Positions 2,938 through 63,369 are shown, counted from the first letter of the stretch. The stretch is DNA of 64,000 bases from Candidatus Levyibacteriota bacterium (GCA_049519175.1 JBEKQZ010000002.1:6782-70781); one strand, 5' to 3'. Numbers and translations are program-made. Notes: generated from the sequence alone by a model not told the origin.

Positions 2938-3024
2938 ACGACTTAAGCCTTATCGCCGATCTTTATCTCTCCCGACAGAATCGAAATTCGATAATTACCG
3001 ACTTTACTGCCTTGACGGGCGGAT

Positions 3025-3870: not shown

Positions 3871-4170
3871 TGTGTACAAGACCCGAGAACGTATTCACCG
3901 CGGCTTGCTGATCCGCGATTACTACCGATTCCGACTTCATGAGGTCAGGTTGCAGACCTCAATCTGAACTGAGGCGAAATTTAAGGGATTCGCTTGCCAT
4001 TGCTGGCTTGCAGCCCGTTGTTTTTCGCCATTGTAGTGTGTGTGTAGCCCAGGGTATAAGGGCCGTGCTGACTTGACGTCTTCCGCTCCTTCCTTCCCAG
4101 TAAAACTGGGACCGTCTCCAATGAATATTCAACATTGGACGCGGGTTGCGCTCGTTTCCCCACTTAAGGG

Positions 4171-4214
<44 letters not shown>

Positions 4215-4322
4215 GTACCATCCTTGCGGATTTCTCTCCATTTCTGGAAAAATAAACGGTATCATGTCAAACCCTGGTGAGGTTTTTCGTTTTGTCTCGA
4301 ATTGAACCACACGCTCCACCGG

Positions 4323-4382
<60 letters not shown>

Positions 4383-5473: not shown

Positions 5474-5929
5474 CTACTCGGTATTTGCTCTTTCGTCTGA
5501 AATGTCATGCCATAAATCAGGATCTATCTCGCCGTTTGCAACCGCCTCTTCGTCTCTAGCAGTATTGACCACTTCTTCGTCATCCAAAACTTCAACTCTT
5601 TCATCTTCCGCAGAAACTCCGCGCGGCGCGGGAAACGAAGCCTCAAAAACAACTTCTTCTGCCAACTCTGCCGCAGGGGCTAGTTTTAATTCTCTGTCAA
5701 TATCAAATTCTGCAGGAGCACCTTGATCCAATCTGCTTAAAGCACTTTCAACCATAAGACCAGGAAGAGCGTCGACAACATCGGCGATTCCCAAATCTAT
5801 TCCGCCAGCAGCCCAAAGCTCCTCAATTTCCAGTCTTCTTGTCAATCCCGTAGCTACCGGAAGTTCTCCTGTTAATTGCGCGCTAAACGGTACTTCTCTA
5901 CTTGGTCTAAAATCTGCTCTTTCTGTCAT
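5474..5929 (-). CDS. hypothetical acidic protein (151 aa)
   Basis: The ORF is D/E-rich. The overlapping plus ORF 5445-5726 is Ser-rich low complexity, so I prefer the minus ORF. There is no motif support. Confidence 0.35.
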   Translation of the reverse strand: MTERADFRPSREVPFSAQLTGELPVATGLTRRLEIEELWAAGGIDLGIADVVDALPGLMVESALSRLDQGAPAEFDIDRELKLAPAAELAEEVVFEASFPAPRGVSAEDERVEVLDDEEVVNTARDEEAVANGEIDPDLWHDISDERANTE

Positions 5930-8742: not shown

Positions 8743-8769
8743 TTATTCTTCTGTAAGGCTTGACAAGAA

Positions 8770-9249
8770 TTGGCCTTAGTGAATTATAATAAGGATTACA
8801 TGACCGCAACCGGACACGCCCTAGTAGGCACAGTTATCGCCGCCAAAGTTGGCAACCCCGCCCTCGCCATTCCCGTTGCCCTTGCTTCACATTTTTTATG
8901 TGACGCACTTCCCCACTGGGACACGGGCTACGCCAGAGAAAAGAAGAGCAAAGCTAGATTTGTCACGGAAAGCGCCATTGATGTCCTTTTGGGTTTTGTT
9001 TTAGCTTATCTTTTGATAGTGCTGTTTTTCCCCTCAACCAGTCTTTTCTACGCGTTTTTGATAATTATCGTGGCCCAGTTGCCAGACTGGCTAACCGCGC
9101 CTTATCTTTTCTTAGACTGGAACTTTCCGCCATTTACTTGGATCTATGAATGTCAGAAAAAATTTGATTCTTCAATCGGTCTTCCCTGGGGAGCTATAAA
9201 TCAGGTAGTCGCAGTCGTCGCCCTCGTTTTTCTCGCCAAAGTTTTCTAA
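8770..9249 (+). CDS. hypothetical polytopic membrane protein (possible membrane-bound metal-dependent hydrolase-like)
   Basis: Four hydrophobic helices and conserved His/Asp (HFLCDALPHWD). The assignment is weak. Confidence 0.5.
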   Translation: MALVNYNKDYMTATGHALVGTVIAAKVGNPALAIPVALASHFLCDALPHWDTGYAREKKSKARFVTESAIDVLLGFVLAYLLIVLFFPSTSLFYAFLIIIVAQLPDWLTAPYLFLDWNFPPFTWIYECQKKFDSSIGLPWGAINQVVAVVALVFLAKVF

Positions 9250-17546: not shown

Positions 17547-17570
17547 TTACTTTAATCCGCCGATGACTTT
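17547..17570 (-). repeat. direct repeat DR1 = the genuine 3' end of mreB (…KVIGGLK*)
   Basis: ttactttaatccgccgatgacttt. The core ccgccgatgacttt is shared with DR3. Confidence 0.6.
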
Positions 17571-18638
17571 GACCCGTTGCAACAGCGAATCCTCTTCCAA
17601 CACTTTTCCGGTGCCGCGGACGACCGAAGTCGTTGGGTCTTCCGAGCGGATAACCGGTAAATGCGTTCTTTCCACGATTAAATTATCAAAACCCGGCAGC
17701 TGCGAACCCCCACCGGTTAGTAAAATGCCGTGCGTTAAAATATCGCTGGTTAATTCCGGCGGCGCGTCTTCCAAAACAGCGGCGATGGCATCAATAATTT
17801 GCGTTAATACCGGCGACAAAGCCTCTCTAACTTCCACTTCGGAAATCCTTAAACTTTTTGGCAAGCCTGTTTCAATATCGCGGCCCCTGATAATAGCTAC
17901 CTTTTCCTCGTCTTTTGGCTTATCGCTTGTGATTTGGGATTTGTGATTTGGAGCTTTCGCATAAGCACTACCGATTCTAATTTTTAAATCTTCTGCCGTC
18001 GCTTCACCAATCAACAACCCATGCCTTAACCTTATGTAATGAATAATTGCCGCATCCATCTCGTCTCCCGCCACTCTTAAGGATTTAGAAACGACAATTC
18101 CGCCCAACGAAATAACGGCAATTTCGGTGGTTCCGCCGCCGATGTCCACCACCATAATTCCGGTTGGGGCAAACACCGAGATATTTTCGCCGATGGCCGC
18201 CGCCATCGGCTCTTCAATTAAATAAGCCTGCCTGGCCCCGGCCGACAGTGCGGCTTCCCAAACCGCCCGTCTTTCTACCTCGGTCACTGAAGATGGAATA
18301 CCGATGACAACGCGCGGCCTTGAAAAATTGGCCGACAAAGGACTGTCCACTTCGTGCACTTTTTTAATGTAATGGGAAATCATCGCTAGCGTCGCGTCAA
18401 AATCGGAAATTACTCCGCCGCGAAGCGGCCTGACGGTGATAATCGAAGCCGGCGTTTTACCAATCATTTTTTTTGCTTCCGCCCCTATTGCAATTACTTT
18501 TTTAGTTTTTTTGTGCATCGCCACCACCGACGGTTCGCGGATAACAATCCCTTTGCCCCGGACAAAAACGAGCGTGTTGGCGGTGCCTAAATCAATACCA
18601 ATGTCATGGGAAAATAAAGAGAATATCTTATTAAACAT
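17547..18638 (-). CDS. mreB: rod shape-determining protein MreB (actin homologue)
   Basis: The phosphate-1 motif IGIDLGTANTLV and the actin-fold motifs DIGGGTTEIAV and LTGGGS are present. Confidence 0.95.
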   Translation of the reverse strand: MFNKIFSLFSHDIGIDLGTANTLVFVRGKGIVIREPSVVAMHKKTKKVIAIGAEAKKMIGKTPASIITVRPLRGGVISDFDATLAMISHYIKKVHEVDSPLSANFSRPRVVIGIPSSVTEVERRAVWEAALSAGARQAYLIEEPMAAAIGENISVFAPTGIMVVDIGGGTTEIAVISLGGIVVSKSLRVAGDEMDAAIIHYIRLRHGLLIGEATAEDLKIRIGSAYAKAPNHKSQITSDKPKDEEKVAIIRGRDIETGLPKSLRISEVEVREALSPVLTQIIDAIAAVLEDAPPELTSDILTHGILLTGGGSQLPGFDNLIVERTHLPVIRSEDPTTSVVRGTGKVLEEDSLLQRVKVIGGLK

Positions 18639-18641
18639 AAC

Positions 18642-18748
18642 TTAGAATTCCTAATTTAAAATTTCTAATTTCTAATCAAATCCAAATGTTCTAATTTTAA
18701 AATTTAGGCATTGAAACATTCATTAAAAATTAAAAATCGAGAATTTCC
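18642..18748. repeat. AT-rich intergenic repeat family 3 (TTTCTAATTTCTAATCAAATCCAAATGT...AAAATTAAAAATCG)
   Basis: The near-identical block recurs at 52892-52975 and 61661-61705, and as a reverse complement at 36185-36228. Confidence 0.45.
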
Positions 18749-22806: not shown

Positions 22807-22810
22807 CAGA

Positions 22811-22911
22811 GGGGTGGTGCGACTGGAAGGGCTCCCGACAGCGTGGATCGCATTCGCCGCGAAGCAAGACCGCGAGAACCCTGGCGGGAATGAAATCGAC
22901 GACAGGACCCC
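22811..22911 (+). ncRNA. structured repeat family 1, copy A (GGGGUGGUGCGA...GGAAGGGCUCCCGACAGCG...CUGGCGGGA...GACAGGACCCC)
   Basis: It shares conserved blocks with copies at 48194-48285 and 53914-54004. It sits in the convergent gap between fmt and rpmB. Its P2 and P4 regions diverge more than the other two copies. Confidence 0.55.
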
Positions 22912-22917
22912 GAGAGG

Positions 22918-23160
22918 TTAAGCTGCGGCTACGACTGGAGTGACTTCTGGAGCAATATCTATAGATTTGATATTAGCAGTTGCGCCTTTAAATTTTCGCA
23001 CGCACTTGGTGCAAAGTCTGACTTTCTTGGCTGTTCCGCCGACAATAATCCGAGCGCTGTGCAAGTTCGGTTTAAAGATTTTTCTGGTTCGGTTTTTGGC
23101 ATGGGAAACGTTGTGTCCATACATTACTCCCTTGCCGCAATTAAAACATATCGCTGCCAT
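22918..23160 (-). CDS. rpmB: 50S ribosomal protein L28
   Basis: C..CGK...G.NVSHAKNRTRKIFKPNLHS matches the L28 signature. 80 aa. Confidence 0.85.
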   Translation of the reverse strand: MAAICFNCGKGVMYGHNVSHAKNRTRKIFKPNLHSARIIVGGTAKKVRLCTKCVRKFKGATANIKSIDIAPEVTPVVAAA

Positions 23161-36168: not shown

Positions 36169-36228
36169 AATGTTTGAAAATTAAATCATTCATTAGAAAT
36201 TAGGAATTAAAAATTAGAAATTAAACTT

Positions 36229-36927
36229 ATGGACACAAAAGTTACAGCTAACAGACAAAAGAAAATCGCCATCGTTGCCGGACTAAACGAAAAAATCGCC
36301 CGTTCTAAAGCGATTATTTTTACCAATTTTGAAAAAGTCACCCACAAACAACTCGAAACTCTAAAAAAAGCCATCAAACCAATGGAAGCCGAATACGTCG
36401 TTGCCAAAAACTCTTTGATTTTAAGAGCTTTGGAAGAAAATAAGATTAAATTAGAAGGCGAAAATCCGCTCGTTGGCCCAACCGGCACGCTTTTACTTTA
36501 CGGAGATGTTGTCTCTCCATTAAAGCAATTGGCCAAAACCATTAAGGAATTGGGATTATTGAACGTTAAATTAGGGATTATGGAGAATAAATTTTTAACC
36601 GGAGAGCAGGTTCTAAAGATTTCCGCTCTTCCCACGCGAGATGTTTTACTGGCGCAAATCGCGGCCGGACTATTGTCCCCAATTTCGGGATTGCACCGCG
36701 CTTTAAATTGGAATTTGCAGAAATTAGTGATGACTTTGGGCGCAGTGGCTAAGAATAAACCCGCCGTTGCAGTTGTCGAAAAGAAAATTGAAGAAGTGAA
36801 AGCAGAAATGCCGGCAAGTGAACCGGAAACAATTTTGGCTGAAACTGCAGAAGAAAAAGCCGCAGAAGAACCAGCTCAAACAGAAGAAGTTAAAGAAGAA
36901 GTGAAAAGCGAAGGGGGTGAGAATTGA
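36229..36927 (+). CDS. rplJ: 50S ribosomal protein L10 with an acidic C-terminal extension
   Basis: L10 core ([35 protein letters not shown]...). It overlaps rplL by 4 nt. Confidence 0.9.
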
Positions 36928-47912: not shown

Positions 47913-48191
47913 ATGGAAAATCTTTTGAACATCCGACAAGTTGCTTTTATTTTAAAAGTTCATCCGTTAACCGTTCGCCGTTATATTAAGGACGGTCGCT
48001 TAAAAGCGGTTAGAGTTGGCGGCAACGTCCGGATTAAAGAATCGCAGTTGTTGGACTTTAATAAAGATTTCTCTTCTGCCCCATCGAAAAAGCAAGTTGT
48101 GAAAAATAGCCTTAAACCGGCCAAAGTCTTTACCTTGGATGATCCGATTTTTCGGTTGAGAGGCAAAGGCGCAAGTCTTACCCTAAGTTAA
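47913..48191 (+). CDS. excisionase-family HTH DNA-binding protein (92 aa)
   Basis: LLNIRQVAFILKVHPLTVRRYIKDGRLKAVRVGGNVRIKESQL is paralogous to the 37453 product. Confidence 0.7.
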   Translation: MENLLNIRQVAFILKVHPLTVRRYIKDGRLKAVRVGGNVRIKESQLLDFNKDFSSAPSKKQVVKNSLKPAKVFTLDDPIFRLRGKGASLTLS

Positions 48192-48193
48192 GA

Positions 48194-48285
48194 GGGGTGG
48201 TGCGATTGGAAGGGCTCCCGACAGCGCGCAAGCCAGTGAGTCGTGAGTGAGCACTGGCGGGAGGGAAAAATCGCGACAGGACCCC
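48194..48285 (+). ncRNA. structured repeat family 1, copy B
   Basis: GGGGUGGUGCGAUUGGAAGGGCUCCCGACAGCGCGCAAGCCAGUGAGUCGUGAGUGAGCACUGGCGGGAGGGAAAAAUCGCGACAGGACCCC. Four nested helices: P1 GGGGU/ACCCC, P2 GCGAUU/AAUCGC, P3 CUCCCG/CGGGAG, P4 CCAGUG/CACUGG. Confidence 0.6.
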
Positions 48286-48302
48286 ACCAAAGGGAATTAT
48301 TT

Positions 48303-52272: not shown

Positions 52273-52868
52273 TCCGCAAATTTAATTGTGGGAATTAATA
52301 AATTGAATAAATCGTTTTCCGCCTGCTGGTCCGGACTTTCGAAAACAAAAGTATAGATTTTTCCGTTGAGCAAAAAGAAAACCGTTTTTTCGTAGCCGGC
52401 TGTCATATCATATTTTGAGAACTCTAAACCCTGCTGGTTATCGACGGAGACTGTAGTTTGCGTGTAAGTGGTCGTATCTTCCCACCTTAAGCGTACACCG
52501 GAATAATCACTTAGTGTCTGCGCGCTGGGATAAGCTATCACTTCACTAAAAAAATGCGTGTGCGAATCGCTTAAATCAAAACCAAAATGTTCCAAATCAT
52601 TATACTGATACGGCTGTCCATTAGTGTATAAAATGAACGCTTTTGCCGCCTTCGGATAAAGAAACGACACGTATTTACCCTGGTGCAAGACGTTTCCGGT
52701 AATTACCGGCGCCGCTTTCAGCACCACTTGCCTGCCCAAAATATTTTCTAAAGCCTGTTGCTTTTGGGCCGCGGTTAACGTTGCCTGCGGGCGGTTAAGA
52801 ATAAGAAAAGCAGCTACAAACAGCCCGAGAATCACTAGGAGAAACACTGATAATATTATCTTCTTCAT
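52269..52868 (-). CDS. hypothetical membrane-anchored protein
   Basis: The track ORF extends to 52895, but the likely start is MKKIILSVFLLVILGLFVAAF at 52868. N-terminal TM. Confidence 0.5.
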   Translation of the reverse strand: MKKIILSVFLLVILGLFVAAFLILNRPQATLTAAQKQQALENILGRQVVLKAAPVITGNVLHQGKYVSFLYPKAAKAFILYTNGQPYQYNDLEHFGFDLSDSHTHFFSEVIAYPSAQTLSDYSGVRLRWEDTTTYTQTTVSVDNQQGLEFSKYDMTAGYEKTVFFLLNGKIYTFVFESPDQQAENDLFNLLIPTIKFAD

Positions 52869-52891
52869 GAATTTATGATACCATAAAATAG

Positions 52892-52975
52892 GCAAATTTC
52901 TAATTCTTAATTTTTAATTTCTAAACAAATCCAAATGTCAAAAAATGAAAATTAAAAATCGCAAATTAAAAATCG
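52892..52975. repeat. AT-rich intergenic repeat family 3 copy (includes a tandem AAATTAAAAATCGC x2)
   Basis: Matches 18642-18748. Confidence 0.45.
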
Positions 52976-53877
52976 CAGTATTCTTAATACTTACTACTGG
53001 CTACTTAGTACTTGCTACTGGCAAAGCGCTTGCCCAAACACAAAAAGGGATTACGGTTGAGCCCTCGATTATGCACATTGATCTTTCCACCGACCAGCCG
53101 GAATATGATTTAACCTATATCAACAGCACCAATTACGCCGTCGGGCTAACCATAAGCGTCCAGGATTTTTCGGCGCTTAGCGACACTTATCAAATTGATT
53201 ATCTTTCGCCTGCCGATGCCGCCAACTACAAATATTCGCTGTCATCTTGGCTGACATTTGAAAATAAAAATTTTGATTTAAATCCCGGCGAAAAAAAGAG
53301 CATCAAAGTTTACATCGATAAAACCAGAATCACCAAAGGCGGCCATTACGCCGCTATTTTGGCCGAAATCGGCGCCCCCAACGGCGGACAAAATTCTAAC
53401 GTCAAAGCGGTTCTTTCCAGCTTGTTGTTTGTGCGTGCCGACACCGGACAGGAAATTGAAGACGGCAAAATCGTCACTTTTGAGCCCAACCGCGACTGGC
53501 TGGAATTTCCGGACAGCTTTATCGTGCGTTTCCAAAACAACGGCAACGTCCACGTCATTCCTTATGGCTTGATTAAAATTTACGACCCGCTGAATAATCT
53601 TGTTACCCAGGGCACTTTTAATATGGACTCTTTGGACGCCTTGCCAGAAAGTATCCGCCGCTACGATACCGATATTGAAGTTTACCAAAAAGTGCTTCTG
53701 CCGGGAACTTACACGGCCAAAATTGCTCTGCATTTTGGCGACACCAACCGAAAAACTTCCGCCACGGTCCAGTTTTATTCCGAAGGAATGTTTGATTTCC
53801 CCAAAATCGGCCTGGGACTGATTATAATTTTGTTAGTGAGCCTTTACCTCCGCAAAAAACTGTCCAAAAAATCTTAA
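52945..53877 (+). CDS. secreted protein with a C-terminal TM anchor, paralogue family B
   Basis: It has a signal peptide. The C-terminus IGLGLIIILLVSLYLRKKLSKKS is a TM helix with a basic tail. The two-domain beta architecture matches the 51205 product. Confidence 0.7.
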   Translation: MKIKNRKLKIAVFLILTTGYLVLATGKALAQTQKGITVEPSIMHIDLSTDQPEYDLTYINSTNYAVGLTISVQDFSALSDTYQIDYLSPADAANYKYSLSSWLTFENKNFDLNPGEKKSIKVYIDKTRITKGGHYAAILAEIGAPNGGQNSNVKAVLSSLLFVRADTGQEIEDGKIVTFEPNRDWLEFPDSFIVRFQNNGNVHVIPYGLIKIYDPLNNLVTQGTFNMDSLDALPESIRRYDTDIEVYQKVLLPGTYTAKIALHFGDTNRKTSATVQFYSEGMFDFPKIGLGLIIILLVSLYLRKKLSKKS

Positions 53878-53885
53878 ACAAGCGC

Positions 53886-53909
53886 AGTGAGCTTGCAAAA
53901 TTTTCGCTG
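53886..53909 (+). repeat. partial copy (24 nt) of repeat family 2, abutting family 1 copy C
   Basis: agtgagcttgcaaaattttcgctg matches the 5' arm of the 157-nt elements at 56248 and 61727. Confidence 0.5.
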
Positions 53910-53913
53910 ATAA

Positions 53914-54004
53914 GGGGTGGCAGGAGTGGAAAGGCTCCCGACAGCGCGCAGATCAGTGAGTCGTGAATGAGCACTGGCGGGAGGGAAACTCCTGACAGGA
54001 CCCC
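53914..54004 (+). ncRNA. structured repeat family 1, copy C
   Basis: GGGGUGGCAGGAGUGGAAAGGCUCCCGACAGCGCGCAGAUCAGUGAGUCGUGAAUGAGCACUGGCGGGAGGGAAACUCCUGACAGGACCCC. P2 is CAGGAG/CUCCUG, a full compensatory change against copy B. Confidence 0.6.
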
Positions 54005-54068
54005 GAAATGATAACAAATTCCGTGAAAAGTTGCATTTCACAAAACTATATGAGTATGATATAGTTGG

Positions 54069-56213
54069 ATGAAAAATCACTGCCTTAGGTTGGCGCTTTT
54101 TGTAATTGTTGGGACAACTTTACTGTCTGTATTCTCAGCAAAAGCGCTGGCCAAAGATTCTTACGGCTTTACTTGGACCATTGCCGCTACTCCTTCCGCC
54201 GTAGTCGTTGACTCTGCTAACAATATTTATTACGCCGGCTATTTGGCGAGTGGCTCCGCCACGCAAATGAATCCCAATTTTAATCTTGGCGCCGGACAGA
54301 TAAGCGATTTAAAAACTGCCACTACCGGCGCTATCTTTTTGACCAAGATGAATCCGGATTTAACCTATAACACCAGCTATATTATTGAAGCCGACAATCC
54401 ATACGTTGTGAGCGGTCAAAACATTTCCGTAACGCTGACCAAAATTGCCACCGACAGCGCCAACAATGTCTATTTGCTGGGTACTTTTACCGGCAATGTC
54501 AATTTTAATCCGACCGGCAGCCTGGATTTCCATTCTTCAAAAGGACAAACTTGGTCCTTTTTGACGGAAATTACAGCCGGCGGACTTTATGGCGGCACTT
54601 ATTTGTGGGGAAACGGCAATATCACCGTCCGCGACCTGACTATTGATAAAGATAATAATCTCTTTTTGCTTGGGCAGGCCGTAAATAGTAGCGGCGGTCC
54701 GATTACGGTTAATTTAAATCCTGTGGGAGGCATAGATAATAAAACTGTCAATGCCGGCGACACCATGGGTTTCTACACTGAACTTGTGGCGGGAACTCCC
54801 AATGCTTACGGTTATTCGAGAACCTTTAAGAATACCAGCTCACAATATCTCGAAGTGGATCATATCGCTACGTCTTCGGCCGGCAAAATTTTTCTTTACG
54901 GTGTTTTTGCCGACACCATGAATTTTAACGGTTCCGGCGGAACCGACAATAAAACCTCTGACAATAGCTCCGATGATCTATATTTAAGTGAATACGATGC
55001 CAGCGGAAATTATGTCTTAACCTACATAATTGGAGGCACCGGTGATGAATCCGCCGAGAGTCTGGCGATAGATAATAACAGTAACGTTTATTATAGTGGC
55101 GGATTTAACAATACGGTCAATTTTGACCCGACCGGCGGAACCGATAGCCAAACCGCTACTCTTCCCGGCCAGCGCTTTTTGTCAAAATTAAACAGCGACG
55201 GAAGTTATGGTTGGACGCTTATTTGGAATTCAAATACTCTGGACATTAACAAAATTGCTTTTGACCAAAACAATTTGATGTATTTGGTTGGAATAAGCGC
55301 CGGAACCATTAACTATGACCCGATCGGCGCCACCGACAACCAAACCGGCTTTGGCGGCAACGATGCTTTTATGACGGTGATAAATCCGGACAAAACTTAT
55401 GACTACACTTACGTTTGGGGCGGAACCGATGACGAAAAAGCGCTGGACGGCTCTTTCGATTCTTTAAATAACTTTTATATTGCCGGCTCGACCCAAAGTC
55501 TAAGCGTCAATTTTGATCCGACCGGCCAAACCGATTTTCCGGTCACTTTTACGGGCGGCGAAAACGGTTATATCACTCAGTTTTCATCCACCCAACTGGT
55601 AGTAGCTCCTCCGACGAATAATTCCAACAACGCAGCGTCAGGACCGGGCCCGCAAGGCTTTAGCTGCACCAATCATGTTCCCGTGGCGCCGCAGATTTTC
55701 CAAATCTGGGCCACCCAAACTACGGCGACCATTTATTTTGTCCCCAGCGCCGACCCGCAGAATTCTTACACCATTAGCTACGGTCTCTATAGTGACGCAG
55801 GAATGTATAACGTTACCTTTAGCTGGTCTGATAAAAGCGGCGCGATTCCCTACACCATAAACGCACTTAGCGCCGGCACGCCCTATTACTTTAAAGTGCG
55901 CGCCAACAATGGTTGTATGCCGGGAGAATGGTCAAACACTCTAGCTCTTAGCACTGCCTATTCTGTTAATGGAGGAAGTAATGCTTATGCTCCAAGCGCT
56001 GTTTTGAGTAGTAACACCGCTGCCGGCGCCACAGGCGGCAGTTGCTCGCAATATACGGTTTTGCCTGGTGATTCGTTCTGGTCAATTGCCCAAAAACTTT
56101 TGGGCGCCGGCACCAAATACCTGCAGATTTGGAATGCTAATAAAACCGCTTTCCCCAGTCTCAATTATTCCTCTATTATCCGTTCGGGCTGGACTCTCTC
56201 CGTGGGCTGCTGA
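54069..56213 (+). CDS. secreted SBBP beta-propeller-repeat protein with an FN3-like domain and a C-terminal LysM domain
   Basis: It has a signal peptide. At least 6 repeats fit the pattern N.VY..G.F.GNVNFNPTG (SBBP-like). The FN3-like segment is PQIFQIWATQTTATIYF...YYFKVRANN. The C-terminal LysM is YTVLPGDSFWSIAQKLLG...WTLSV. Confidence 0.7.
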   Translation: MKNHCLRLALFVIVGTTLLSVFSAKALAKDSYGFTWTIAATPSAVVVDSANNIYYAGYLASGSATQMNPNFNLGAGQISDLKTATTGAIFLTKMNPDLTYNTSYIIEADNPYVVSGQNISVTLTKIATDSANNVYLLGTFTGNVNFNPTGSLDFHSSKGQTWSFLTEITAGGLYGGTYLWGNGNITVRDLTIDKDNNLFLLGQAVNSSGGPITVNLNPVGGIDNKTVNAGDTMGFYTELVAGTPNAYGYSRTFKNTSSQYLEVDHIATSSAGKIFLYGVFADTMNFNGSGGTDNKTSDNSSDDLYLSEYDASGNYVLTYIIGGTGDESAESLAIDNNSNVYYSGGFNNTVNFDPTGGTDSQTATLPGQRFLSKLNSDGSYGWTLIWNSNTLDINKIAFDQNNLMYLVGISAGTINYDPIGATDNQTGFGGNDAFMTVINPDKTYDYTYVWGGTDDEKALDGSFDSLNNFYIAGSTQSLSVNFDPTGQTDFPVTFTGGENGYITQFSSTQLVVAPPTNNSNNAASGPGPQGFSCTNHVPVAPQIFQIWATQTTATIYFVPSADPQNSYTISYGLYSDAGMYNVTFSWSDKSGAIPYTINALSAGTPYYFKVRANNGCMPGEWSNTLALSTAYSVNGGSNAYAPSAVLSSNTAAGATGGSCSQYTVLPGDSFWSIAQKLLGAGTKYLQIWNANKTAFPSLNYSSIIRSGWTLSVGC

Positions 56214-56247
56214 AGTTAACTGAGAGTAACAAACTGCCAACATGCAG

Positions 56248-56404
56248 CCGAATGCATGAAAACTTGAGCGAGCTTACAAAATTTTCGCTGCTTTCCTTAG
56301 AATTCATTAACGAGGAGCGTGCGATATTTTAGCATGAGCGGAAAGCGAGAAAATTTTCTGCAAGCGAGCGTCATTTGCAAAGTGTGATACCGACTGAAGA
56401 TAGT
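56248..56404. repeat. repeat family 2, 157-nt element with long internal inverted repeat arms (~31 nt each)
   Basis: ~85% identical to 61727-61883. The arms gagcgagcuuacaaaauuuucgcugcuuucc / ggaaagcgagaaaauuuucugcaagcgagcg can pair. It lies in the convergent gap between the SBBP gene and galT. Confidence 0.7.
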
Positions 56405-56417
56405 CCCCGAACTTAAA

Positions 56418-57293
56418 TCAGACCGCTCTTTTGTAGTTTGCCCTGTGGATCGTGCGGATTTTTTCTTCGTCGGGGCTTTCGAAATGTTCTTTGATAAAAG
56501 CGATCGTCTCTTTCGGGTCTTGTGTGTTGACCGAAACGCCCGTTCCAAGCTCAAACCCCCCCAGACTCTTGAGTCTTGGAATAATTCTTAAATACCAACC
56601 AAGGTTTGGCGAAATATAGAAATTGAACGGAAATTCGTGGTTGTGGCGCAAATCAAAAATCTGAATTAAGCGGTAAAGAATTTTTGCTAGGTCTTTGATT
56701 TCGGCGTCGGAAATTTGTGAGAAGAAAACATTTTGAGCCTTAGGAAGAATCCAAACTTCATCCGGCCATTCCGAAGAAACAGGACAAAAGATTTGAAAAT
56801 ACTCCGTTTCCTGACTCTCTTCTTCCGTTTTGGAAAAGCTAACCGGCGCGATTTCCAGCTTGACAAAGTCAGGAATGACAGCGAGTTGACTGTGCGGGTG
56901 TGGTAAACTCTCACCGCCGGCCTCGCCGTGGTTATGAAAAATGTAGACTTGACCTTTATCTTGATGTGTCTGAAAACGTTGGCGGTAAGTTTTTAGCACC
57001 AGCTCTGACTGCGAAAGAGGTAGCTCTTCGAAGTTTTTGTGGTGGTCCGGCGAGTGAATAATTACTTCATGAATCGGCGCAAATGGAAATTTATTGTCAA
57101 CTACTCTTACCAACCAGTTTCGATCGTTATTTTCTCCACCAATACGGTAAACTTCCTTATCTTTTAGCTCATTCCCCGGACAAAACGGACATCGCGGTTC
57201 TTCCCCTTTGGCAATATCCGGCCTATCGGCACGTCTTGGCGCCGAAATAATCCAACGTTTTGAAATTGGGTTTTCGACAAACTTAAAATCCAT
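56418..57293 (-). CDS. galT: galactose-1-phosphate uridylyltransferase (short HIT-family form)
   Basis: The zinc site is CPFCPGNE and the HIT-like active site is HPHSQL. Confidence 0.85.
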   Translation of the reverse strand: MDFKFVENPISKRWIISAPRRADRPDIAKGEEPRCPFCPGNELKDKEVYRIGGENNDRNWLVRVVDNKFPFAPIHEVIIHSPDHHKNFEELPLSQSELVLKTYRQRFQTHQDKGQVYIFHNHGEAGGESLPHPHSQLAVIPDFVKLEIAPVSFSKTEEESQETEYFQIFCPVSSEWPDEVWILPKAQNVFFSQISDAEIKDLAKILYRLIQIFDLRHNHEFPFNFYISPNLGWYLRIIPRLKSLGGFELGTGVSVNTQDPKETIAFIKEHFESPDEEKIRTIHRANYKRAV

Positions 57294-58213
57294 CTCTTTT
57301 AATTAAACAACAATTAGGAAACAACATGCAAGAAAAACAATTTAATTACCTCTTGATAATTCAGGACTAAGAGCATAAAATGGTTTTTAAGAGTAACCTA
57401 TAATTTATTACCAACAAACACTTTCTGAGTAGGTTTGCGAAGAATTGAGATTTTTAACTAATTGAGCGACAAGCGAAAATCGGCACAAATTGATACGAAA
57501 ATAAAACGAAACCACATCAAGAAGGCTACATTTACCCACCTTGATTATGAAAGCGAAGCAATTAAATACTAAAGGATAAATTTTGGCAGTTGAAAATGCT
57601 ACATGCTACGTATCGGAAATGAACATTTAGCACTATCAACGTTAGAAAATTAAAAATCTTTTGCTAACAAAGTGCTTACTTTACTTGTTAGAATTATTAA
57701 ATTCCATTCTAAAGCTTATGTTTGTGAAAATAAATTAATGACTACAGAAATTTCCTATTGCTTATTGCGGTAAATACTCGGTAAATTTTACTATTTAGCT
57801 TCAATTATACTAGAAAAATTTTAGAATGAGCATAATCTTGTTTTTTCACGAACTTTTCTAAGTCCACCAGTAAAGCTTTTTCAAGATAATTTACTGTGTA
57901 TCTACTCTGTTCTATATCATTCTATATATTTTACTATCTTTTGCTATTTTACGTTTTTAGCATTTGAATGAAAACATTTTCTATCGTTTTCTTTCAAATT
58001 AGAATATCTTATAATAATCGCTAGTATTTATTGACTATGGCATCGGATACAATTACCTCTATGTAGTTTTTCCTTGGACTTTTTGGATTAATTCCTTTAT
58101 ATAGTATCCACCTTGCCGCATTAGTAATGGAGTTTTAATTTAGATTTAATGAAAAGTTAATGAACGGTTCTTGTTTATTTATTTACTACCGTTATTGATA
58201 AAGTTCGGGAACT
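57294..58213. other. ~920-bp AT-rich region with no ORF of 60 aa or more on any strand
   Basis: There is a marked drop in GC relative to the flanks, no periodic repeats, and no rRNA/tRNA signatures. Confidence 0.5.
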
Positions 58214-58927
58214 TTAAGAGCTAAACTTTGCTTTTAAAACCAGGAAGATAAACTTTATTAAAGATAGTTGCCGCTTAATCCTCCAGGGTTGAACAATTAG
58301 TCTAAATAACCATTCCAACCCCAACTTTCTTAGAATCAGAGGCGCTCTAGTGACTTTGCCGCTTAAAAAATCAAAAGCGCCGCCTACTCCGACGACAACT
58401 TTTGCCGGGAGAGTATCTAAGTTGTCAGCGATCCAAATTTCCTGTTTTGGCGACCCAAAAGCCACAAAAAGAAGGTCTACTTTTTTATCTTTTAAGCCTT
58501 CCGACCATTCACTTGCAACCATGCCAACTTTTAAACCCGGGTACTTTTTCTTTAAGCACTCCACTGTTTTCTCTGCTACGCCAGGCCCGGCACCGAGAAA
58601 GCCCACCGTTATAGGCCGATCTGATACTTCCTTACAGAGGTTTTCCATTAGGTCAACTCCCTGAATTCTTTGCTCTAATGGTTTTCCGACTACTCGAGCT
58701 CCAATCATGATACCGATGCCGTCGGGTAAGGCTAATTTTGCCCCATTCAAGATGTCTCTATACTTAGCGTTACTGTTGGCAATGACCAAAAGTTCAGGGT
58801 TTGGAGTAACGATGTAGTATTTTTTCGTCTGTTGCCCTAGACCTGTAACAATAAACTCTAGGATTTCTTTCTCTGTTCCCTTTGTCAGCCCTACTCCGAG
58901 CAATGATATTTTCTCAAAATTCTTCAT
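58214..58927 (-). CDS. WecB/TagA/CpsF-family glycosyltransferase
   Basis: ISLLGVGLT...IVTPNPELL...ALPDGIGIM...FLGAGPGVAE...FVAFGSPKQEIWI is the TagA/WecG family pattern. The track ORF extends to 59032, but the family N-terminus points to the Met at 58927. Confidence 0.8.
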   Translation of the reverse strand: MKNFEKISLLGVGLTKGTEKEILEFIVTGLGQQTKKYYIVTPNPELLVIANSNAKYRDILNGAKLALPDGIGIMIGARVVGKPLEQRIQGVDLMENLCKEVSDRPITVGFLGAGPGVAEKTVECLKKKYPGLKVGMVASEWSEGLKDKKVDLLFVAFGSPKQEIWIADNLDTLPAKVVVGVGGAFDFLSGKVTRAPLILRKLGLEWLFRLIVQPWRIKRQLSLIKFIFLVLKAKFSS

Positions 58928-59160
58928 TTTGCTATAAGACTTTTTTCTGATTTTTGAAAACTGAAAAACGTCTTTTATGAGCATTTTTATTGTCCAGGAT
59001 TTCTTCCTTGACATTTCGCATGAGCATTCCAAACTTGCCCATTTTACAAAGAACTGTCAGTTTAAATACTATAATCCTTATTACTGTGAAAAATTTGTTT
59101 AAAAATGGCTTTCTTTTTAGTATTTATTGTTGTCTCTAAATTAATATAAGACATTATTAT

Positions 59161-60180
59161 TTATTTTTTGGCAATGCTTCTTTTATACAATTCTATATTC
59201 TCCAGCGCTACGCCGGTTCCCCGGACAACGCATAACAGCGCGTCTTCCGCCATATGGCACGGGACGCCGGTAACTTTGGTCATTAGTTTATCAAAATTGG
59301 TCAGAAGCGATGTGCCGCCCGACATCACCACGCCTTTGTCGATAATGTCGCTGGCCAATTCCGGCGGAGTTTGTTCCATGACGCCTTTGACCGCCGAAAT
59401 AATATCGATTAAAACCGGATAGATGGCTTCGTTAATTTGGCCTTCGTTTAACTCGACTGTCCGGGGCAAACCGGTAATCGAATCCCGGCCACGGATTTCC
59501 TTTTTGAGTTGATCGGAAACCTTTTTGTCGTCTAAATACGCGTTGGCCATCTCAATTTTAATTTCTTCGGCTGTGCGCTCCCCAATTAACAAATTAAACT
59601 TCTTCTTGATATAGTTAGCGATCGCCTCGTCAATTTTATTGCCACCGACGCGCACGGAATTGTGCACCACTACGCCGCCCAAGGAAATAACCGCCGCCTC
59701 GGTTGAACCACCGCCGATATCTACCACCATATGCCCTGCCGGTTGAGCAATCGGCACTTTTGCGCCAATGGCGGCGGCCAATGGCTCTTCGATTAGATAA
59801 GCCACTTTTGCCCCGGCTGCCATCGTCGCATCCAAAACTGCTCTTCTTTCTACCTGTGTCACGCCCGACGGAATACACACCATCACTTCGGGTTTAAAAA
59901 AACGCGACTTGCCGGCCGCTTTATCGATAAAATAAGACAGCATCGCTTCGGTAATGGTGTAATCGGCAATGACGCCGTCGCGAAGTGGCCTTAAAGCAAT
60001 GATATTCCCCGGAGTTCGCCCAAGCATTTCCTTGGCTTCTTTGCCGACGGCGACGACGCGGTTTTCTTCAACCGTGACTGCCACCACAGTTGGTTCGTTC
60101 AGAACAATTCCTTCTCCGGCTACATAAACCAGAGTATTAGCAGTCCCTAAGTCAATACCAATTCTCTTAGAGAATGCCAT
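59161..60180 (-). CDS. MreB-family actin homologue, second paralogue
   Basis: IGIDLGTANTLVYV, DIGGGSTEAAVISL and MSGGTS motifs. A strong SD (GGAGG) lies 8 nt upstream. Confidence 0.9.
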   Translation of the reverse strand: MAFSKRIGIDLGTANTLVYVAGEGIVLNEPTVVAVTVEENRVVAVGKEAKEMLGRTPGNIIALRPLRDGVIADYTITEAMLSYFIDKAAGKSRFFKPEVMVCIPSGVTQVERRAVLDATMAAGAKVAYLIEEPLAAAIGAKVPIAQPAGHMVVDIGGGSTEAAVISLGGVVVHNSVRVGGNKIDEAIANYIKKKFNLLIGERTAEEIKIEMANAYLDDKKVSDQLKKEIRGRDSITGLPRTVELNEGQINEAIYPVLIDIISAVKGVMEQTPPELASDIIDKGVVMSGGTSLLTNFDKLMTKVTGVPCHMAEDALLCVVRGTGVALENIELYKRSIAKK

Positions 60181-60414
60181 AGAACCTCCTTAAGCTATTT
60201 CCAGCTTGCCCCGCATGAATGCCCTTGCGATACGTGGATGTAAGCCACGAGAGCAAGAAAGTTTCGTGTGGGGTTCCCAAGTCTATACCGATGCGTTTTG
60301 AAAGCGCCATAAAAATTAAAACGCGCGAAAAAACCGTATCAAAATATATAGTTAATCTATCAAAATTTAACTACAGCTTCCGGCTTTTTTGATTATAGAA
60401 CTCCTTCATACTTC

Positions 60415-60444
60415 TTGCAAGAGCTACTTAGCAAGTTGTATAAT
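60415..60444 (+). promoter_or_regulatory. promoter TTGCAA-N18-TGTATAAT for the PEGA/TolB-like gene (near-leaderless)
   Basis: The -10 ends 12 nt before the ATG at 60457. Confidence 0.45.
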
Positions 60445-60456
60445 CCAAATTGCGCT

Positions 60457-61662
60457 ATGAAGAAATTAATCATTCCCATCTTAATCGTTTTGTTTTTACT
60501 GACAGGAACGGTCGTCGTCGTATTGCTTGGTCGGGGCTATGGTTTAAATCTTAATGGCAGCGGCCCAATTTTATCGGGAACCGGCCTGCTGGTAGCTACG
60601 AGCTCGCCTGACGGCGCGCAGGTGATTATTAACGGTCATTTGACCACCGCCACCGACAACACCATTAATCTCGTGCCGGGCAATTATGACGTTAAGATTT
60701 ACAAAGAGGGCTATTTCCCGTGGGAAAAAAATATTATTGTTAAAAAAGAAGTTGTCAGCAAGGCCGATGCTCTGCTTTTTCCAACCGCTCCACAGCTGGT
60801 CAGCATTACCAATGTCGGCGTTTTAAATCCGGTCATTGACCCAAGTCTTAGTAAAATTGCTTATGCCGTCGCCAGCCAATCGGCGGTCAAAAATGGCATT
60901 TATGTTTTGGATATGAGTGTTAGGCCGATTTTGACTTTGCAAAATGCTTCCTCGCAAATCGTTCAGGACGTCACCAATGATTTTTCGACTTCCACTTTCA
61001 CCTGGTCACCAGACAGCGTCCAAATTTTAGCCACTAGCAACAAAGGTGATACTGTTACCAAATATCTTTTGGATACGAATACGCTTAACCAAGATCCGCA
61101 AGACGTCACGGAAACTATCGACTCTGTCAACAACTCCTGGCAAAAGATGCAGTCTGATAAAGACACCGCTCAATTAAACAGTCTCCCTAAGGCTTTACGT
61201 ACAGTTGTCACCCAAAACTTTAATATCTTGCAATGGTCAGCCGACGAAACCAAAATTTTATATCAGGCGTCGCAGTCGGCCACAATTCCACTGATAATTA
61301 ACCCGCCATTGATTGGCACCGACTCGACACCTCAAGTCAGAAATATTAATAAAGGCGAAGTTTACGTTTACGATATTAAAGAAGACCGAAATTATTTGAT
61401 TTTATCCGCTCTGCCAACGCCTCAATTTGACAATGGCGAATTACCGATTATGTGGTATCCGGATTCCAAACATTTGGTTTATGTTCACGACGGCCGGATT
61501 GATATGATGGAATACGACGCAGGCAACCAAACCACGGTTTACGCCGGACCGTTTGTTGATGATTATGTTTTTCCGTGGCCAGACGCAACCCAATTGGTAA
61601 TTTTGACTAATCTTGGCAACCCCAATATCGTCCCAAATCTCTACACGATTGGCTTAAAGTAA
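60457..61662 (+). CDS. membrane-anchored PEGA-domain + TolB-like (PD40 beta-propeller) protein
   Basis: N-terminal TM. The PEGA motif is SSPDGAQVIINGHLTTATDNTINLVPGNYDVKIYKEGYFPWEKNI. PD40-like repeats follow (WSPDSVQILATS, WSADETKILY, WYPDSKHLVYVHDGRIDMMEYDAGN). The track ORF begins at TTG 60415. Confidence 0.6.
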   Translation: MKKLIIPILIVLFLLTGTVVVVLLGRGYGLNLNGSGPILSGTGLLVATSSPDGAQVIINGHLTTATDNTINLVPGNYDVKIYKEGYFPWEKNIIVKKEVVSKADALLFPTAPQLVSITNVGVLNPVIDPSLSKIAYAVASQSAVKNGIYVLDMSVRPILTLQNASSQIVQDVTNDFSTSTFTWSPDSVQILATSNKGDTVTKYLLDTNTLNQDPQDVTETIDSVNNSWQKMQSDKDTAQLNSLPKALRTVVTQNFNILQWSADETKILYQASQSATIPLIINPPLIGTDSTPQVRNINKGEVYVYDIKEDRNYLILSALPTPQFDNGELPIMWYPDSKHLVYVHDGRIDMMEYDAGNQTTVYAGPFVDDYVFPWPDATQLVILTNLGNPNIVPNLYTIGLK

Positions 61663-61726
61663 ATTTCTAATTTCTGATTCTTAATTTCTAATCAAAACTC
61701 AATTCTCTATTTTGCCAACACATAAG

Positions 61727-61883
61727 CCGAATGCCTGAAAACTTGAGTGAGCTTGCAAAATTTTGGATGCTTTCCTTCGAATTCCTTAACGAGGAACGTG
61801 CGTTATTTTAGTATGAGCGGAAAGCGAGAAAATTTTCTGCAAGAGAACGGAATCTGCAATACGTGTTTACCGACTGAAGCTAG
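61727..61883. repeat. repeat family 2, second full copy
   Basis: See 56248-56404. It lies in the convergent gap between the PEGA/TolB gene and the sortase gene, and is preceded by a family-3 AT-rich repeat at 61661-61705. Confidence 0.7.
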
Positions 61884-61894
61884 AATTGCATCAA

Positions 61895-62602
61895 TTATTT
61901 TGGTTGTGCAAACACCAATAATCTCTGCAGAGTAGTTCCTGGCGGCCAGCAGGTTTGCAAGATGAGTTGTTGTTTATCTTGATTTTGAGAATTGACCAAA
62001 TAAGATACATCCGACGGGCTGACGATTTTTGATCCAGTTACGATATAGTTGTAGCGCTTATTTTGGTAGAAAATGACTACTTCATCCCCTTTATTTAAGT
62101 CTTTGAGTAGGTAAAAAACGGCGTTGTAGCGTCCGACATCCCAAAAGTTATCGGTAGAATGCGCAAACAGATAAACATTGCCATTCATGCCCGGAAAAAC
62201 TGTTCCCGCGGCATGCGCAACGCCTTGCATTAGAATTGGCAAGAAGACATTTTGATTGCTAATATCCACGTTCGGAAACACCTTGGCGCTGGCACCAATT
62301 TTAGGAATTATGATCGAAAAATTAGGATCTTTGGGAACAAGCACCTGCTCTTGCGGACCGGCTAGCACATCGGCAAAACTGGCTGTTCCACCAGATAATT
62401 GTGTTGTTTGAGCTTGAGTTATTGGCAGTTGAGGAGTCTGACTGACAACATAATGCACTCCCCTCGCCTCAACTATATGGAAAGCTACTTCGTAATAAAT
62501 TGCCGGACCAAAAGTAGCTAAAATGCCGAAGATGGCAAACAGAACCAAAAAATTCCCAATGGTTCTAAGTATAAAAAACCTAAGCATTTCTTTTCTCGTC
62601 AT
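61895..62602 (-). CDS. sortase-family transpeptidase
   Basis: N-terminal TM, His in NVYLFAHST, the catalytic Cys in LILQTCWPPG (TLxTC-like), and a downstream Arg. Confidence 0.65.
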   Translation of the reverse strand: MTRKEMLRFFILRTIGNFLVLFAIFGILATFGPAIYYEVAFHIVEARGVHYVVSQTPQLPITQAQTTQLSGGTASFADVLAGPQEQVLVPKDPNFSIIIPKIGASAKVFPNVDISNQNVFLPILMQGVAHAAGTVFPGMNGNVYLFAHSTDNFWDVGRYNAVFYLLKDLNKGDEVVIFYQNKRYNYIVTGSKIVSPSDVSYLVNSQNQDKQQLILQTCWPPGTTLQRLLVFAQPK

Positions 62603-62632
62603 AAAAATAAAATATTATTGTTTACCAACAAG

Positions 62633-62704
62633 TGCCCTTGAGGGGAATTGAACCTCTATCTGCGCCTTAGGAGTGCGCTGCTCTATCCGTTGAGCTACAA
62701 GGGC
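62633..62704 (-). tRNA. tRNA-Arg (anticodon CCU)
   Basis: Reverse complement GCCCTTGTAGCTCAACGGATAGAGCAGCGCACTCCTAAGGCGCAGATAGAGGTTCAATTCCCCTCAAGGGCA. The acceptor is GCCCTTG/CAAGGGC and the anticodon loop is CUCCUAA. Confidence 0.85.
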
Positions 62705-62739
62705 TTTTTACTTACACAAGTTTATCCAAATTCATTAAC

Positions 62740-63369
62740 CTATGCAATAGCTAGAGCAAATGCTTTATTAATTCCTTTTACCTGCTTAAGCAGGTCTCCA
62801 CCTTTTAATACTCTCACTCTACACATTCCGTATTCCAATTTTCCCTTTTTTTTGCCGTGCAGCACATCAACATTTATAAATTTTTCTTTTTTTATGCCCA
62901 CTATTCGTGACCAAAAATTTAAACACCTATCTCTATCCAGATCCTCATATATTCTGATACTTATACGCAATCTGTCATTTTGAATATTAAAAACGTTTCT
63001 TAAAACATTTATAAATGATTTAATTAATTCTGGATCTGTGTTAGATAAACCGAAATCCTTTTTGCTTCCCTCACCCCAATATAATGCGCAGGCAAACAGC
63101 ATTTTTTCTTTTGAAGACAAGTTCTCTACAACCTTACGTCCGTCTAAAAATGCCTGCTTTTCTTTTAGTATTTTTCTGTATCTACTACCAACTCGTTTGG
63201 CTTCCCAAAGCTTTATAAATTCCGGTAAGATTTGTACATTTTTTATATATCTAAATACCGTAGTCTTCGGAACTTCTAACTCCCTGCTAATCTCAGGCAA
63301 GCTGTATCCTAAAGATCTTAAATTCTTAATTTTTAGCACTTTATCATTATCCAAAGCAGGTTTACCCAT
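62740..63369 (-). CDS. HTH-domain protein with a possible degenerate LAGLIDADG-like motif (putative free-standing homing-endonuclease-like gene between two tRNAs)
   Basis: The N-terminal HTH is LRSLGYSLPEISRELEVPKTTVFRYIKN. A central ALYWGEGSKKD resembles the intron HE motif GLTDGEGCF. The gene is flanked by tRNA-Arg and tRNA-Pro. Confidence 0.45.
   Translation of the reverse strand: MGKPALDNDKVLKIKNLRSLGYSLPEISRELEVPKTTVFRYIKNVQILPEFIKLWEAKRVGSRYRKILKEKQAFLDGRKVVENLSSKEKMLFACALYWGEGSKKDFGLSNTDPELIKSFINVLRNVFNIQNDRLRISIRIYEDLDRDRCLNFWSRIVGIKKEKFINVDVLHGKKKGKLEYGMCRVRVLKGGDLLKQVKGINKAFALAIA

Follow-up and report, generated by a model that had tools for sequence, protein, structure and literature searches.

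A dispersed, hairpin-forming palindromic repeat in gene-end spacers of Candidatus Levybacteria, probably a non-autonomous element of the ERIC/Correia/MITE-like kind

What kind of element is a long palindromic segment that stands twice between convergent genes in a genome of the Candidate Phyla Radiation (CPR/Patescibacteria)? Genomes of this group are small and streamlined, and repeats and mobile DNA are thought to be scarce in them. We addressed this question in a stretch of 64 kb (hereafter the window, the whole stretch of DNA that was analysed) belonging to a metagenome-assembled genome of Candidatus Levybacteria. An initial annotation had listed the element as repeat family 2, a 157-nt palindrome downstream of surface-protein genes, and had offered three roles for it, namely a bidirectional terminator, a small RNA (sRNA) or a mobile element resembling a miniature inverted-repeat transposable element (MITE). 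Of these, the MITE-like role is the best supported; the analysis points, with moderate probability, to a non-autonomous palindromic intergenic repeat of the ERIC/Correia/MITE-like kind, the hairpin of which would be under selection.

The window holds two full copies, A and B, and one solitary arm. Their features, all on the + strand, are as follows.
56235-56405, copy A: the whole segment in common with copy B, that is the hairpin unit with left and right extensions of the window type
56254-56385, copy A: the family-conserved hairpin unit, a covariance-model match of 117 bits
56266-56296, copy A: left arm GAGCGAGCTTACAAAATTTTCGCTGCTTTCC, with the GA of the tandem GA loop at 56270-71 and AAAATTTT at 56278-85
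56297-56339, copy A: apex of 43 nt, about 90% conserved inside subfamily 1 and swapped out in other subfamilies
56340-56370, copy A: right arm GGAAAGCGAGAAAATTTTCTGCAAGCGAGCG, with AAAATTTT at 56350-57 and GA at 56366-67
61714-61885, copy B: the whole segment in common with copy A, with a syntenic orthologue in the related contig L003
61733-61864, copy B: the hairpin unit, a covariance-model match of 111 bits
61745-61775 and 61819-61849, copy B: the two arms, with AAAATTTT at 61757-64 and 61829-36
53880-53909: solo left arm AAGCGCAGTGAGCTTGCAAAATTTTCGCTG of 30 nt, beginning 3 nt past the stop of a gene for a 310-aa protein and followed by a family-1 repeat

The two copies had been annotated at 56248-56404 and 61727-61883, and both the positions and the + strand were borne out; copy B lies at the coordinates of copy A plus 5479. 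Identity between them was 140 of 172 alignment columns (81%; 56235-56405 against 61714-61885) and reached 88% over the hairpin unit, and it was 79% when the annotated coordinates were compared without gaps, on account of a 1-nt indel; the annotated value of about 85% was thus roughly right. The length of 157 nt had to be revised, as the segment shared by A and B measured about 171 nt and the unit conserved between genomes about 120-130 nt, which is shorter than either figure. The extra 30-40 nt that A and B have in common on each side were specific to the window lineage, the left extension recurring in L003 and in the orthologous gap of L034. The arms of each copy are inverted repeats of 31 nt each around a 43-nt apex, in agreement with the annotated arms of about 31 nt and loop of about 44 nt. 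The solo arm had been recognised as a 24-nt fragment (53886-53909) abutting family 1; it is real and does adjoin that repeat, and its full extent is 30 nt, which include the canonical left terminus of the family, GCGCAGTGAG; the arm is broken off just past AAAATTTTCG/AAAATTTTCGCTG. Two core patterns (25 and 27 nt) gave exactly two matches each in the window, with an expectation of 0 from dinucleotide shuffles, and neither the covariance model (R1) nor the profile detected a third full copy in the 64 kb.

Copy A occupies a 204-nt gap between the convergent stop codons of an SBBP/fn3/LysM gene (56213) and galT (56418), and copy B a 232-nt gap between those of a PEGA gene (61662) and a sortase gene (61895), with an AT-rich AATTTCTAAT repeat (61662-61720) directly to its left. 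The convergent flanks had been correctly annotated; for the gene labelled PEGA/TolB, a PEGA domain was the only match.

Outside the window, copies were found by pattern scans and locus look-ups for related DNA, followed by the profile and the covariance model. The family comprised 13 full copies at 9 distinct genomic sites in 6 assemblies, 2 of them in the window and the following 11 in five other Levybacteria/Patescibacteria assemblies.
L001, contig from a peat metagenome: upstream of tRNA-Leu, between it and a Pro-rich open reading frame (ORF)
L003, SMAG_U14563: in the sortase/PEGA gap, syntenic with copy B, the flanking proteins being 83-86% identical
L007, SMAG_U14562: past rny, ahead of the HU gene
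L010, SMAG_U14562: past trpS, ahead of ftsH
L028 (copy L028g), JGI contig: 13 nt beyond the galT stop, in the SBBP/galT gap
L028 (copy L028s), JGI contig, 13482-13614: full copy past the stop of the 310-aa gene, ahead of the SBBP promoter
L026, ENA contig_29557, 262 kb: upstream of the 310-aa gene
L043, ENA contig_29557, as for L026: between a Mur ligase gene and TGT
L034, ENA contig: past PEGA, in the PEGA/sortase gap
L034, ENA contig: in the leader of tRNA-Arg
L034, ENA contig: filling the tRNA-Arg/tRNA-Pro spacer

On one strand of L034, which holds two subfamilies, the order was copy c, tRNA-Arg(CCT), TATAAT, copy b, tRNA-Pro(CGG) (L034 2343-2741 and about 2900-3640). In the same contig no sortase gene was called between PEGA and the tRNAs, where it appears to have decayed. 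In L028 and L032, an extra ORF of 163-173 aa without a Pfam match (L028 5253-5744; L032 5237-5758) lay between sortase and PEGA, where other genomes have a repeat or nothing. Most copies begin 0-15 nt from a stop codon. Since copies adjoin galT, trpS, rny, a murein ligase gene and tRNAs, the annotated location downstream of surface-protein genes was incidental. Partial copies were also found, one truncated copy in L034 and solo left arms in L041 and L043.

A pair of similar segments may of course be due to chance or to a one-off local duplication, as would suit a window that has only two full copies in 64 kb, with single-sequence folds that are not significant. This explanation is refuted, and we give it next to no weight: homologous copies stand at unrelated loci in five other assemblies and their structure covaries, so that the family is not confined to the locus in which it was noticed.

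The reach of the family was further delimited by searches of wider collections. A scan of genome contigs with an exact 22-mer gave no match, and the same 22-mer found one locus in metagenome contigs. A structural-pattern scan returned three true copies and seven chance matches. Three matches of the structural pattern were viral and were rejected as an unrelated conserved element; the IMG/VR contigs concerned (L012 1887-1955, L013 1701-1769 and L014 8228-8296) have a conserved segment of about 200 nt in common which matched the pattern by chance. No match was obtained with two terminus patterns against viral contigs, or by blastn against the plasmid collection and 5,426 E. coli genomes.

Folding, inspection of flanks and aligned comparisons covered 12 copies (all except that of L043), and every one of the 12 folded into the same long-hairpin architecture. 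At its base is an outer stem of 4-8 bp, the sequence of which varies by copy with complementarity kept (TTTGC/GCAAA, AAAATTGC/GCAATTTT, GCTTGC/GCAAGC, AAGCGC/GCGCTT). Above it, 2 nt bulge out on the 3′ side; there follow the three pairs of a GGG/CCU stem, one of them a conserved G·U, then a symmetric internal loop of tandem GA/GA and a stem of 5-7 bp (GCTTAC/GTAAGC, GATAC/GTGTC, GATACG/CGTATC, GGAAT/GTTCC). In the next step AAAAUUUU is paired with AAAAUUUU, and beyond an internal loop the hairpin is closed by a 7-bp stem (GCUUUCC/GGAAAGC, or GCUUUCA/UGGAAGC in L028) that carries the apex. The apex sequence differs between subfamilies. AAAATTTT was invariant or nearly so in both arms of the aligned copies, and the distance between its two occurrences was 67-73 nt, mostly 72, even where the subfamily interior differs.

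Covariation of the arms, which the initial annotation had put forward as a check, was clearly present. In the model-guided alignment, 87% of the cells fell in standard pairs and 17 of 32 pairs showed compensatory changes on both sides; none of 500 shuffles reached the observed values, and partners slid by 1-3 columns paired at 31-50%. A plain MAFFT alignment gave much the same picture, with 86% of the cells paired and changes on both sides in 15 pairs. The comparison indicates that the hairpin, beyond mere sequence, is under selection, and as judged from sequence the case for the structure lies in the family and not in the window folds. Folded singly, A and B showed no significant excess of stability over shuffles (z about -1); they are the weakest hairpins of the family (z of -2 to -5 for most others), and for this reason single-sequence folding of the window alone is unconvincing.

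To what extent are the sites of the element fixed? In the window, where the element is present, the galT gap measured 204 nt; in L028, which has a divergent copy, it measured 259 nt. Gaps without the element were 56 nt long in L019 (where an ordinary terminator hairpin was found), 13 nt in L026 and 160 nt in L032. The window, L003 and L034 have the sortase/PEGA gap filled, whereas that of L019 (121 nt) and that of L026 (3 nt) are empty, and this pattern did not follow relatedness of the neighbouring gene, the PEGA protein of L003 being 93% identical to that of L019, where the site is empty, versus 86% to that of the window, where it is filled. Past the 310-aa gene, L019, L026 and L032 have 2-3 nt from the stop to a conserved palindromic promoter element (GTGAAAAGTTGCATTTCAC), L028 carries an insert of about 140 nt and the window holds the truncated arm. 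In the trpS-ftsH gap only L010 had the element; in relatives whose TrpS is 81-93% identical, the gap is 28-90 nt long and lacks it. The family thus consists of multiple dispersed copies with insertion polymorphism.

Copies of one genome were more alike than positional orthologues. Over the hairpin, identity was 88% for A and B, 79% for L028g and L028s and 70% for copies b and c of L034, and it was 82% for copy B and its positional orthologue in L003 and 58% for copy A and L028g. The element also changes more slowly than the flanking genes in the comparison of copy B with L003, in which the core was about 92% identical, the flanking genes 79-80% at the nucleotide level and the remaining spacer unalignable.

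The close attachment of most copies to stop codons raises the question whether the hairpin serves the host. It could be a cis-acting RNA hairpin at gene ends, either an unconventional and possibly bidirectional terminator or a 3′-end or processing hairpin, which would protect flanking mRNAs and pre-tRNAs or time their decay and would have been spread by recombination and not by mobility of its own. The covarying hairpin suits such a role, as does the fact that the convergent gaps of A and B lack a canonical terminator: a scan of 52500-63000 found no short GC-rich stem with a T-run at either window gap, and the element-free relative L019 has ordinary terminators (A-run, hairpin, T-run) in the same gaps. 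On the minus strand, 6 of 12 copies had a T-run after the hairpin; among these are A, B, L003 and L028g, which have the end of a minus-strand gene just upstream. Yet only 4 of 12 had one on the + strand, and T-runs were missing from half of the copies on either strand. Copies also lie inside co-directional units (trpS-ftsH, rny-HU, Mur ligase-TGT) and, past a TATAAT box, in the leader and spacer of tRNA-Arg/tRNA-Pro, where termination would be harmful. Moreover, close relatives manage without the element in gaps of 3-13 nt, and the conserved AAAATTTT, the tandem GA and the constant spacing of 72 nt are superfluous for a terminator. We therefore did not retain the proposed bidirectional terminator in its conventional form, and hold a host-serving hairpin in the wider sense to be rather unlikely as the main explanation. 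A near-identical terminator-like hairpin with flanks AAAAGTTTTTGGGCGTCTTTTCC(G/A)AAAAAGACGC was seen in L019 (about 5490-5540, sortase/PEGA gap) and in L034 (about 11060-11110, galT gap), a hint that in this lineage even terminators of ordinary appearance are dispersed repeats.

A protein-coding role was ruled out. The internal ORFs (56297-56554 on the minus strand and 61747-61935 on the + strand), which the initial annotation had already taken for artefacts of the repeat, had no Pfam match, and the ORF of copy B (62 aa) had no homologue among 5.8 billion proteins. The sole ATG-led frame common to the copies (MSGK[R/L]EN...) ends at varying places after 9-40 codons, 9 in L010. Known RNA families were likewise not recovered: Rfam 15 gave nothing at gathering level in the whole window, and over A and B only chance matches were returned (12-13 bits, E>2; run at E<=10). 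6S RNA, retron, attC, riboswitch and T-box were rejected from the anatomy, given several subfamilies, no fixed class of neighbour, no reverse transcriptase or integrase nearby and no attC core sites. Some subfamily-1 copies carry TTGCAA/TTACAA-N17-18-TAGAAT (+) or TGcTAAAAT (-); an internal promoter as a family feature was rejected, the boxes not being conserved in L028, L034 or L026.

Which strand would act, if the hairpin is read as RNA? Canonical pairing was almost equal by strand (322 of 376 cells on + and 315 on -), and the wobble pairs gave mixed evidence, with 25 G·U on + versus 18 on -. Only the window + strand has the conserved G·U and the tandem G·A, the other strand having C·A and pyrimidine mismatches (U·C/C·U) in their place; folding was also more favourable on the + strand in 10 of 12 copies, the mean advantage being about 6 kcal/mol (for copy A, -32.3 kcal/mol on + and -29.1 on -). 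G·U, tandem GA and folding energies are the only features that favour the + strand. Both orientations relative to genes occurred. In most copies the + version ran in the direction of an adjacent gene or tRNA; it was antisense to every neighbour in L001, L007, L010 and L043, where a + RNA would need a promoter of its own.

The annotated role as a small RNA, now put as a family of independently transcribed sRNA genes whose product corresponds to the + strand, could draw on these strand features, on the antisense copies and on -10-like boxes upstream of several copies (e.g. TATAAT at L034b). It found no support in its other expected parts: no promoter was conserved by position or sequence, no consistent terminator followed the hairpin, Rfam gave no match, and the apex, the only large unpaired part, was unconserved between subfamilies; the near-equal pairing of the two strands also speaks against it. 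We keep it as a very unlikely alternative.

With respect to the chromosome, orientation was more regular than with respect to genes. In the window-syntenic region, copies at seven sites in five genomes all had the better-folding strand on the C-rich strand, whatever the gene direction, and the trpS copy (L010) did likewise. GC skew at third codon positions (GC3 skew) was -0.18 for + genes versus +0.03 for - genes of the window, and +0.05 to +0.07 versus -0.14 to -0.24 in the trpS region, which in both regions makes the leading strand the one opposite the better-folding strand of the element. The 262-kb contig has trpS and galT in the same orientation at a distance of 100 kb, with both of its copies (L026, L043) on one strand; the orientation of L007 was ambiguous by GC3 skew. 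Co-orientation of all strand-assignable copies on the C-rich (lagging) strand, as seen in a few independent regions, may reflect replication-coupled insertion or selection, and such a strand-polar arrangement, if genome-wide, would point to a replication-coupled mechanism.

The same regularity invites the idea of a DNA element read by a protein, with two direct AAAATTTTCG sites about 72 bp (about 7 helical turns) apart within a palindrome and tied to a replication strand; candidates would be a nucleoid, partition or primosome-type site, or a single-stranded DNA (ssDNA) hairpin for an HUH-type enzyme. The near-invariance of AAAATTTT in both arms and its spacing of 67-73 nt despite a replaced interior agree with this, as do the C-rich-strand position of the window-syntenic and L010 copies and the two co-oriented copies 100 kb apart on one contig. 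However, the element is missing from many close relatives and is hence not essential, the orientation evidence comes from two to three independent chromosomal regions with L007 ambiguous, and neither the scanned window ORFs nor the locus gene tables contained an HUH gene. In addition, the better-folding strand lies on the leading-strand template, whereas the IS608 paradigm expects the lagging-strand template. We consider a protein-read DNA site decidedly unlikely.

A non-autonomous palindromic repeat, which we prefer, would work as follows. New copies would arise in short gene-end or leader spacers through a non-autonomous mobile or copy-and-paste process; they are gained or lost fast between related species and are kept alike inside a genome. 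A resident copy can fold to one long hairpin, as RNA if the spacer is transcribed or else as ssDNA. Movement, present or past, would be due to an enzyme encoded elsewhere, and the hairpin may be the substrate of that enzyme or of the host (e.g. in RNase III cleavage or 3′-end protection). The readings are not mutually exclusive, as a repeat spread as DNA can act as an RNA hairpin once it is resident.

Several results weigh against this preference. Target-site duplications, another check put forward in the initial annotation, were absent: no such duplication or flanking direct repeat was present in the 12 copies inspected, and none appeared when filled and empty sites were compared (L028 with L032, L010 with L039). 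No transposase, RAYT (REP-associated tyrosine transposase, REP being the repetitive extragenic palindrome) or TnpB-like gene was found among 50 window ORFs searched against Pfam (five large ORFs left out) or in the gene tables of the loci examined. A longer element with the same ends, as expected of a parent insertion sequence (IS), was not found among the scanned window ORFs, the locus gene tables, the plasmid collection and the viral contigs. Other short repeats sit at some of the empty sites and filled sites are not simple insertions relative to empty ones, which makes recombinational replacement of whole spacers an alternative to transposition. The copy counts, 0-5 per genome, come from 17-64 kb of sequence each. 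Finally, covariation of the outermost stem, different in each copy, is atypical of protein-bound terminal inverted repeats and fits a selected RNA or ssDNA hairpin better.

The absence of target-site duplications argues against a classical cut-and-paste DDE transposase, and no conserved flanking tetranucleotide or short target was found ahead of the element. The truncated copies are as follows.
53880-53909, window
11230-11284, L034
8775-8810, L041
8005-8030, L043
All four are left arms broken 2-5 nt past AAAATTTT, and each break is joined to a different sequence: in the window to family 1, in L041 to an AT-rich repeat, in L043 to a full copy and in L034 to other material. The lack of duplications, the co-orientation on the C-rich strand, the recurrent one-sided truncations with left arms broken just past AAAATTTTCG and the selection on the hairpin, including its G·U, tandem G·A and AAAATTTT, would all be explained by a new type of hairpin-borne CPR mobile element. 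Such an element would be moved as a single strand (ssDNA at the replication fork or an RNA copy), and the enzyme responsible would be one that has so far not been connected with it. As a specific proposal we regard it as unlikely.

The spacers in which the palindromic repeat resides hold other repeats as well. The family-1 repeat (window 22808-22921, 48191-48300 and 53911-54014) resembles a nested structured RNA, in which GGGGUGG...GGACCCC and GGCUCCCGACAGCG...CUGGCGGGAG helices enclose a variable, seemingly covarying hairpin, with no Rfam match at E<=10; the member at 53911 takes the place of most of a family-2 copy. An AT-rich repeat (AATTTCTAATTTCTAATCAAA...) was present in gene-end spacers of the window (18646-18704, 52895-52953 and 61662-61720, and inverted at 36189-36229) and of relatives (L035 10976-11060, L032 about 10880-10905 and L041 about 8745-8775). 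In L035 (trpS-ftsH gap) and L032 (galT gap) it occupies sites at which the family-2 element is missing, and it seems to be a second family of repeats that colonise spacers. Upstream of the SBBP/LysM gene, the palindrome GTGAAAAGTTGCATTTCAC with TATGAGTATGATATAG after it (window about 54022-54065) was strongly conserved in L019, L026, L028, L032 and L034 and is probably a promoter with an operator.

Two further features of the window were recorded. At 2736-2947, 3089-3517 and 3821-5199, all on the minus strand, the window has a short (1379-nt) 16S rRNA gene and, 3′ of it and presumably inside the 23S gene, a group I intron whose ORF encodes a LAGLIDADG endonuclease; such rRNA introns are typical of CPR genomes. 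Two MreB paralogues (17547-18638 and 59161-60180, both on the minus strand) account for families D4, D6 and D9 of the repeat search.

Intergenic spacers of Levybacteria turn over quickly, and at least three other short repeat families share them with the palindromic repeat. The latter offers a marker for typing of strains and species, a handle on how elements spread in organisms with few transposases, and a set of candidate RNA hairpins that may shape the fate of mRNAs and pre-tRNAs. In the literature searched, no paper described small palindromic repeat families in CPR/Patescibacteria. The family is previously undescribed and has no homology to any named palindromic repeat family, and it belongs to a kind of repeat already known in other bacteria, to which ERIC, Correia/NEMIS, RUP and further MITE-like elements belong; comparisons follow below.

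Integron attC sites need RYYYAAC...GTTRRRY core sites, cassette arrays and IntI. The Levybacteria repeat, unlike them, has the ends GCGGGGAG...GACCTCAGC and housekeeping genes in conserved synteny as neighbours. With intrinsic terminators it shares a hairpin straight after the stop codon and, in some copies, an A-run before and a T-run after it; it differs in a stem of about 50 bp with internal loops versus 5-14 GC-rich pairs, and in the inconsistent T-run.

Among mobile hairpins, the palindrome-associated transposable elements (PATEs), which are derived from IS200/IS605, also lack target-site duplications and have DNA hairpins and an orientation tied to the replication strand. A PATE has a small subterminal hairpin at each end and inserts 3′ of a fixed target of 4-5 nt, whereas in the Levybacteria repeat the whole element is one hairpin, no flanking tetranucleotide is conserved and the better-folding strand lies on the leading-strand template. 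REPINs, which are REP doublets moved by RAYT (a Y1 HUH transposase), are similar to it in being dispersed hairpins with compensatory stem changes, without target duplication and in within-genome families. Unlike in REPINs, the arms are not REP palindromes with a conserved 5′ tetranucleotide and, apart from AAAATTTT, are not self-complementary; there was also no RAYT in the scanned window ORFs or locus gene tables, and copy number appears low here.

The Correia elements or NEMIS (Neisseria miniature insertion sequences) are 100-155 bp long and have 26-bp terminal inverted repeats, a TA duplication, a site for integration host factor and outward promoters, and the hairpins of their transcripts in Neisseria are cleaved by RNase III. 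They resemble the Levybacteria repeat as small non-coding palindromes near gene ends, and by this analogy RNase III cleavage of the hairpin is a plausible mode of action here. The Levybacteria repeat differs from them in flanks that are not TA...TA, in having no duplication and no consistent promoter, and in its unrelated sequence. Compared with MITEs, it is likewise small (<500 bp; the unit being 120-130 nt), non-coding and dispersed at polymorphic sites, and its arms pair as terminal inverted repeats over about 25-32 bp in 12 of 12 copies tested. It is nevertheless not a MITE in the strict sense, because no target-site duplication was seen, and no parent element was found in the sequences covered; the annotated label holds only in its looser form, that of a palindromic non-coding dispersed repeat with a covarying hairpin.

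The last comparison is with the enterobacterial repetitive intergenic consensus (ERIC), also known as intergenic repeat unit (IRU). ERIC is a non-coding imperfect palindrome of about 127 nt that forms one long hairpin and has no known transposase; it lies in short transcribed spacers by gene ends, in either orientation relative to genes, and both its copy number and its presence at orthologous sites vary between relatives. The two are set apart by the phylum, by the lack of sequence similarity (no blastn match in the E. coli genomes) and by three features of the Levybacteria repeat, that is the conserved AAAATTTT pair, the tandem GA loop and the co-orientation on one chromosomal strand. They agree in size, in the palindromic hairpin, in being non-coding, in their gene-end spacers, in the polymorphism of their sites and in having no known transposase.

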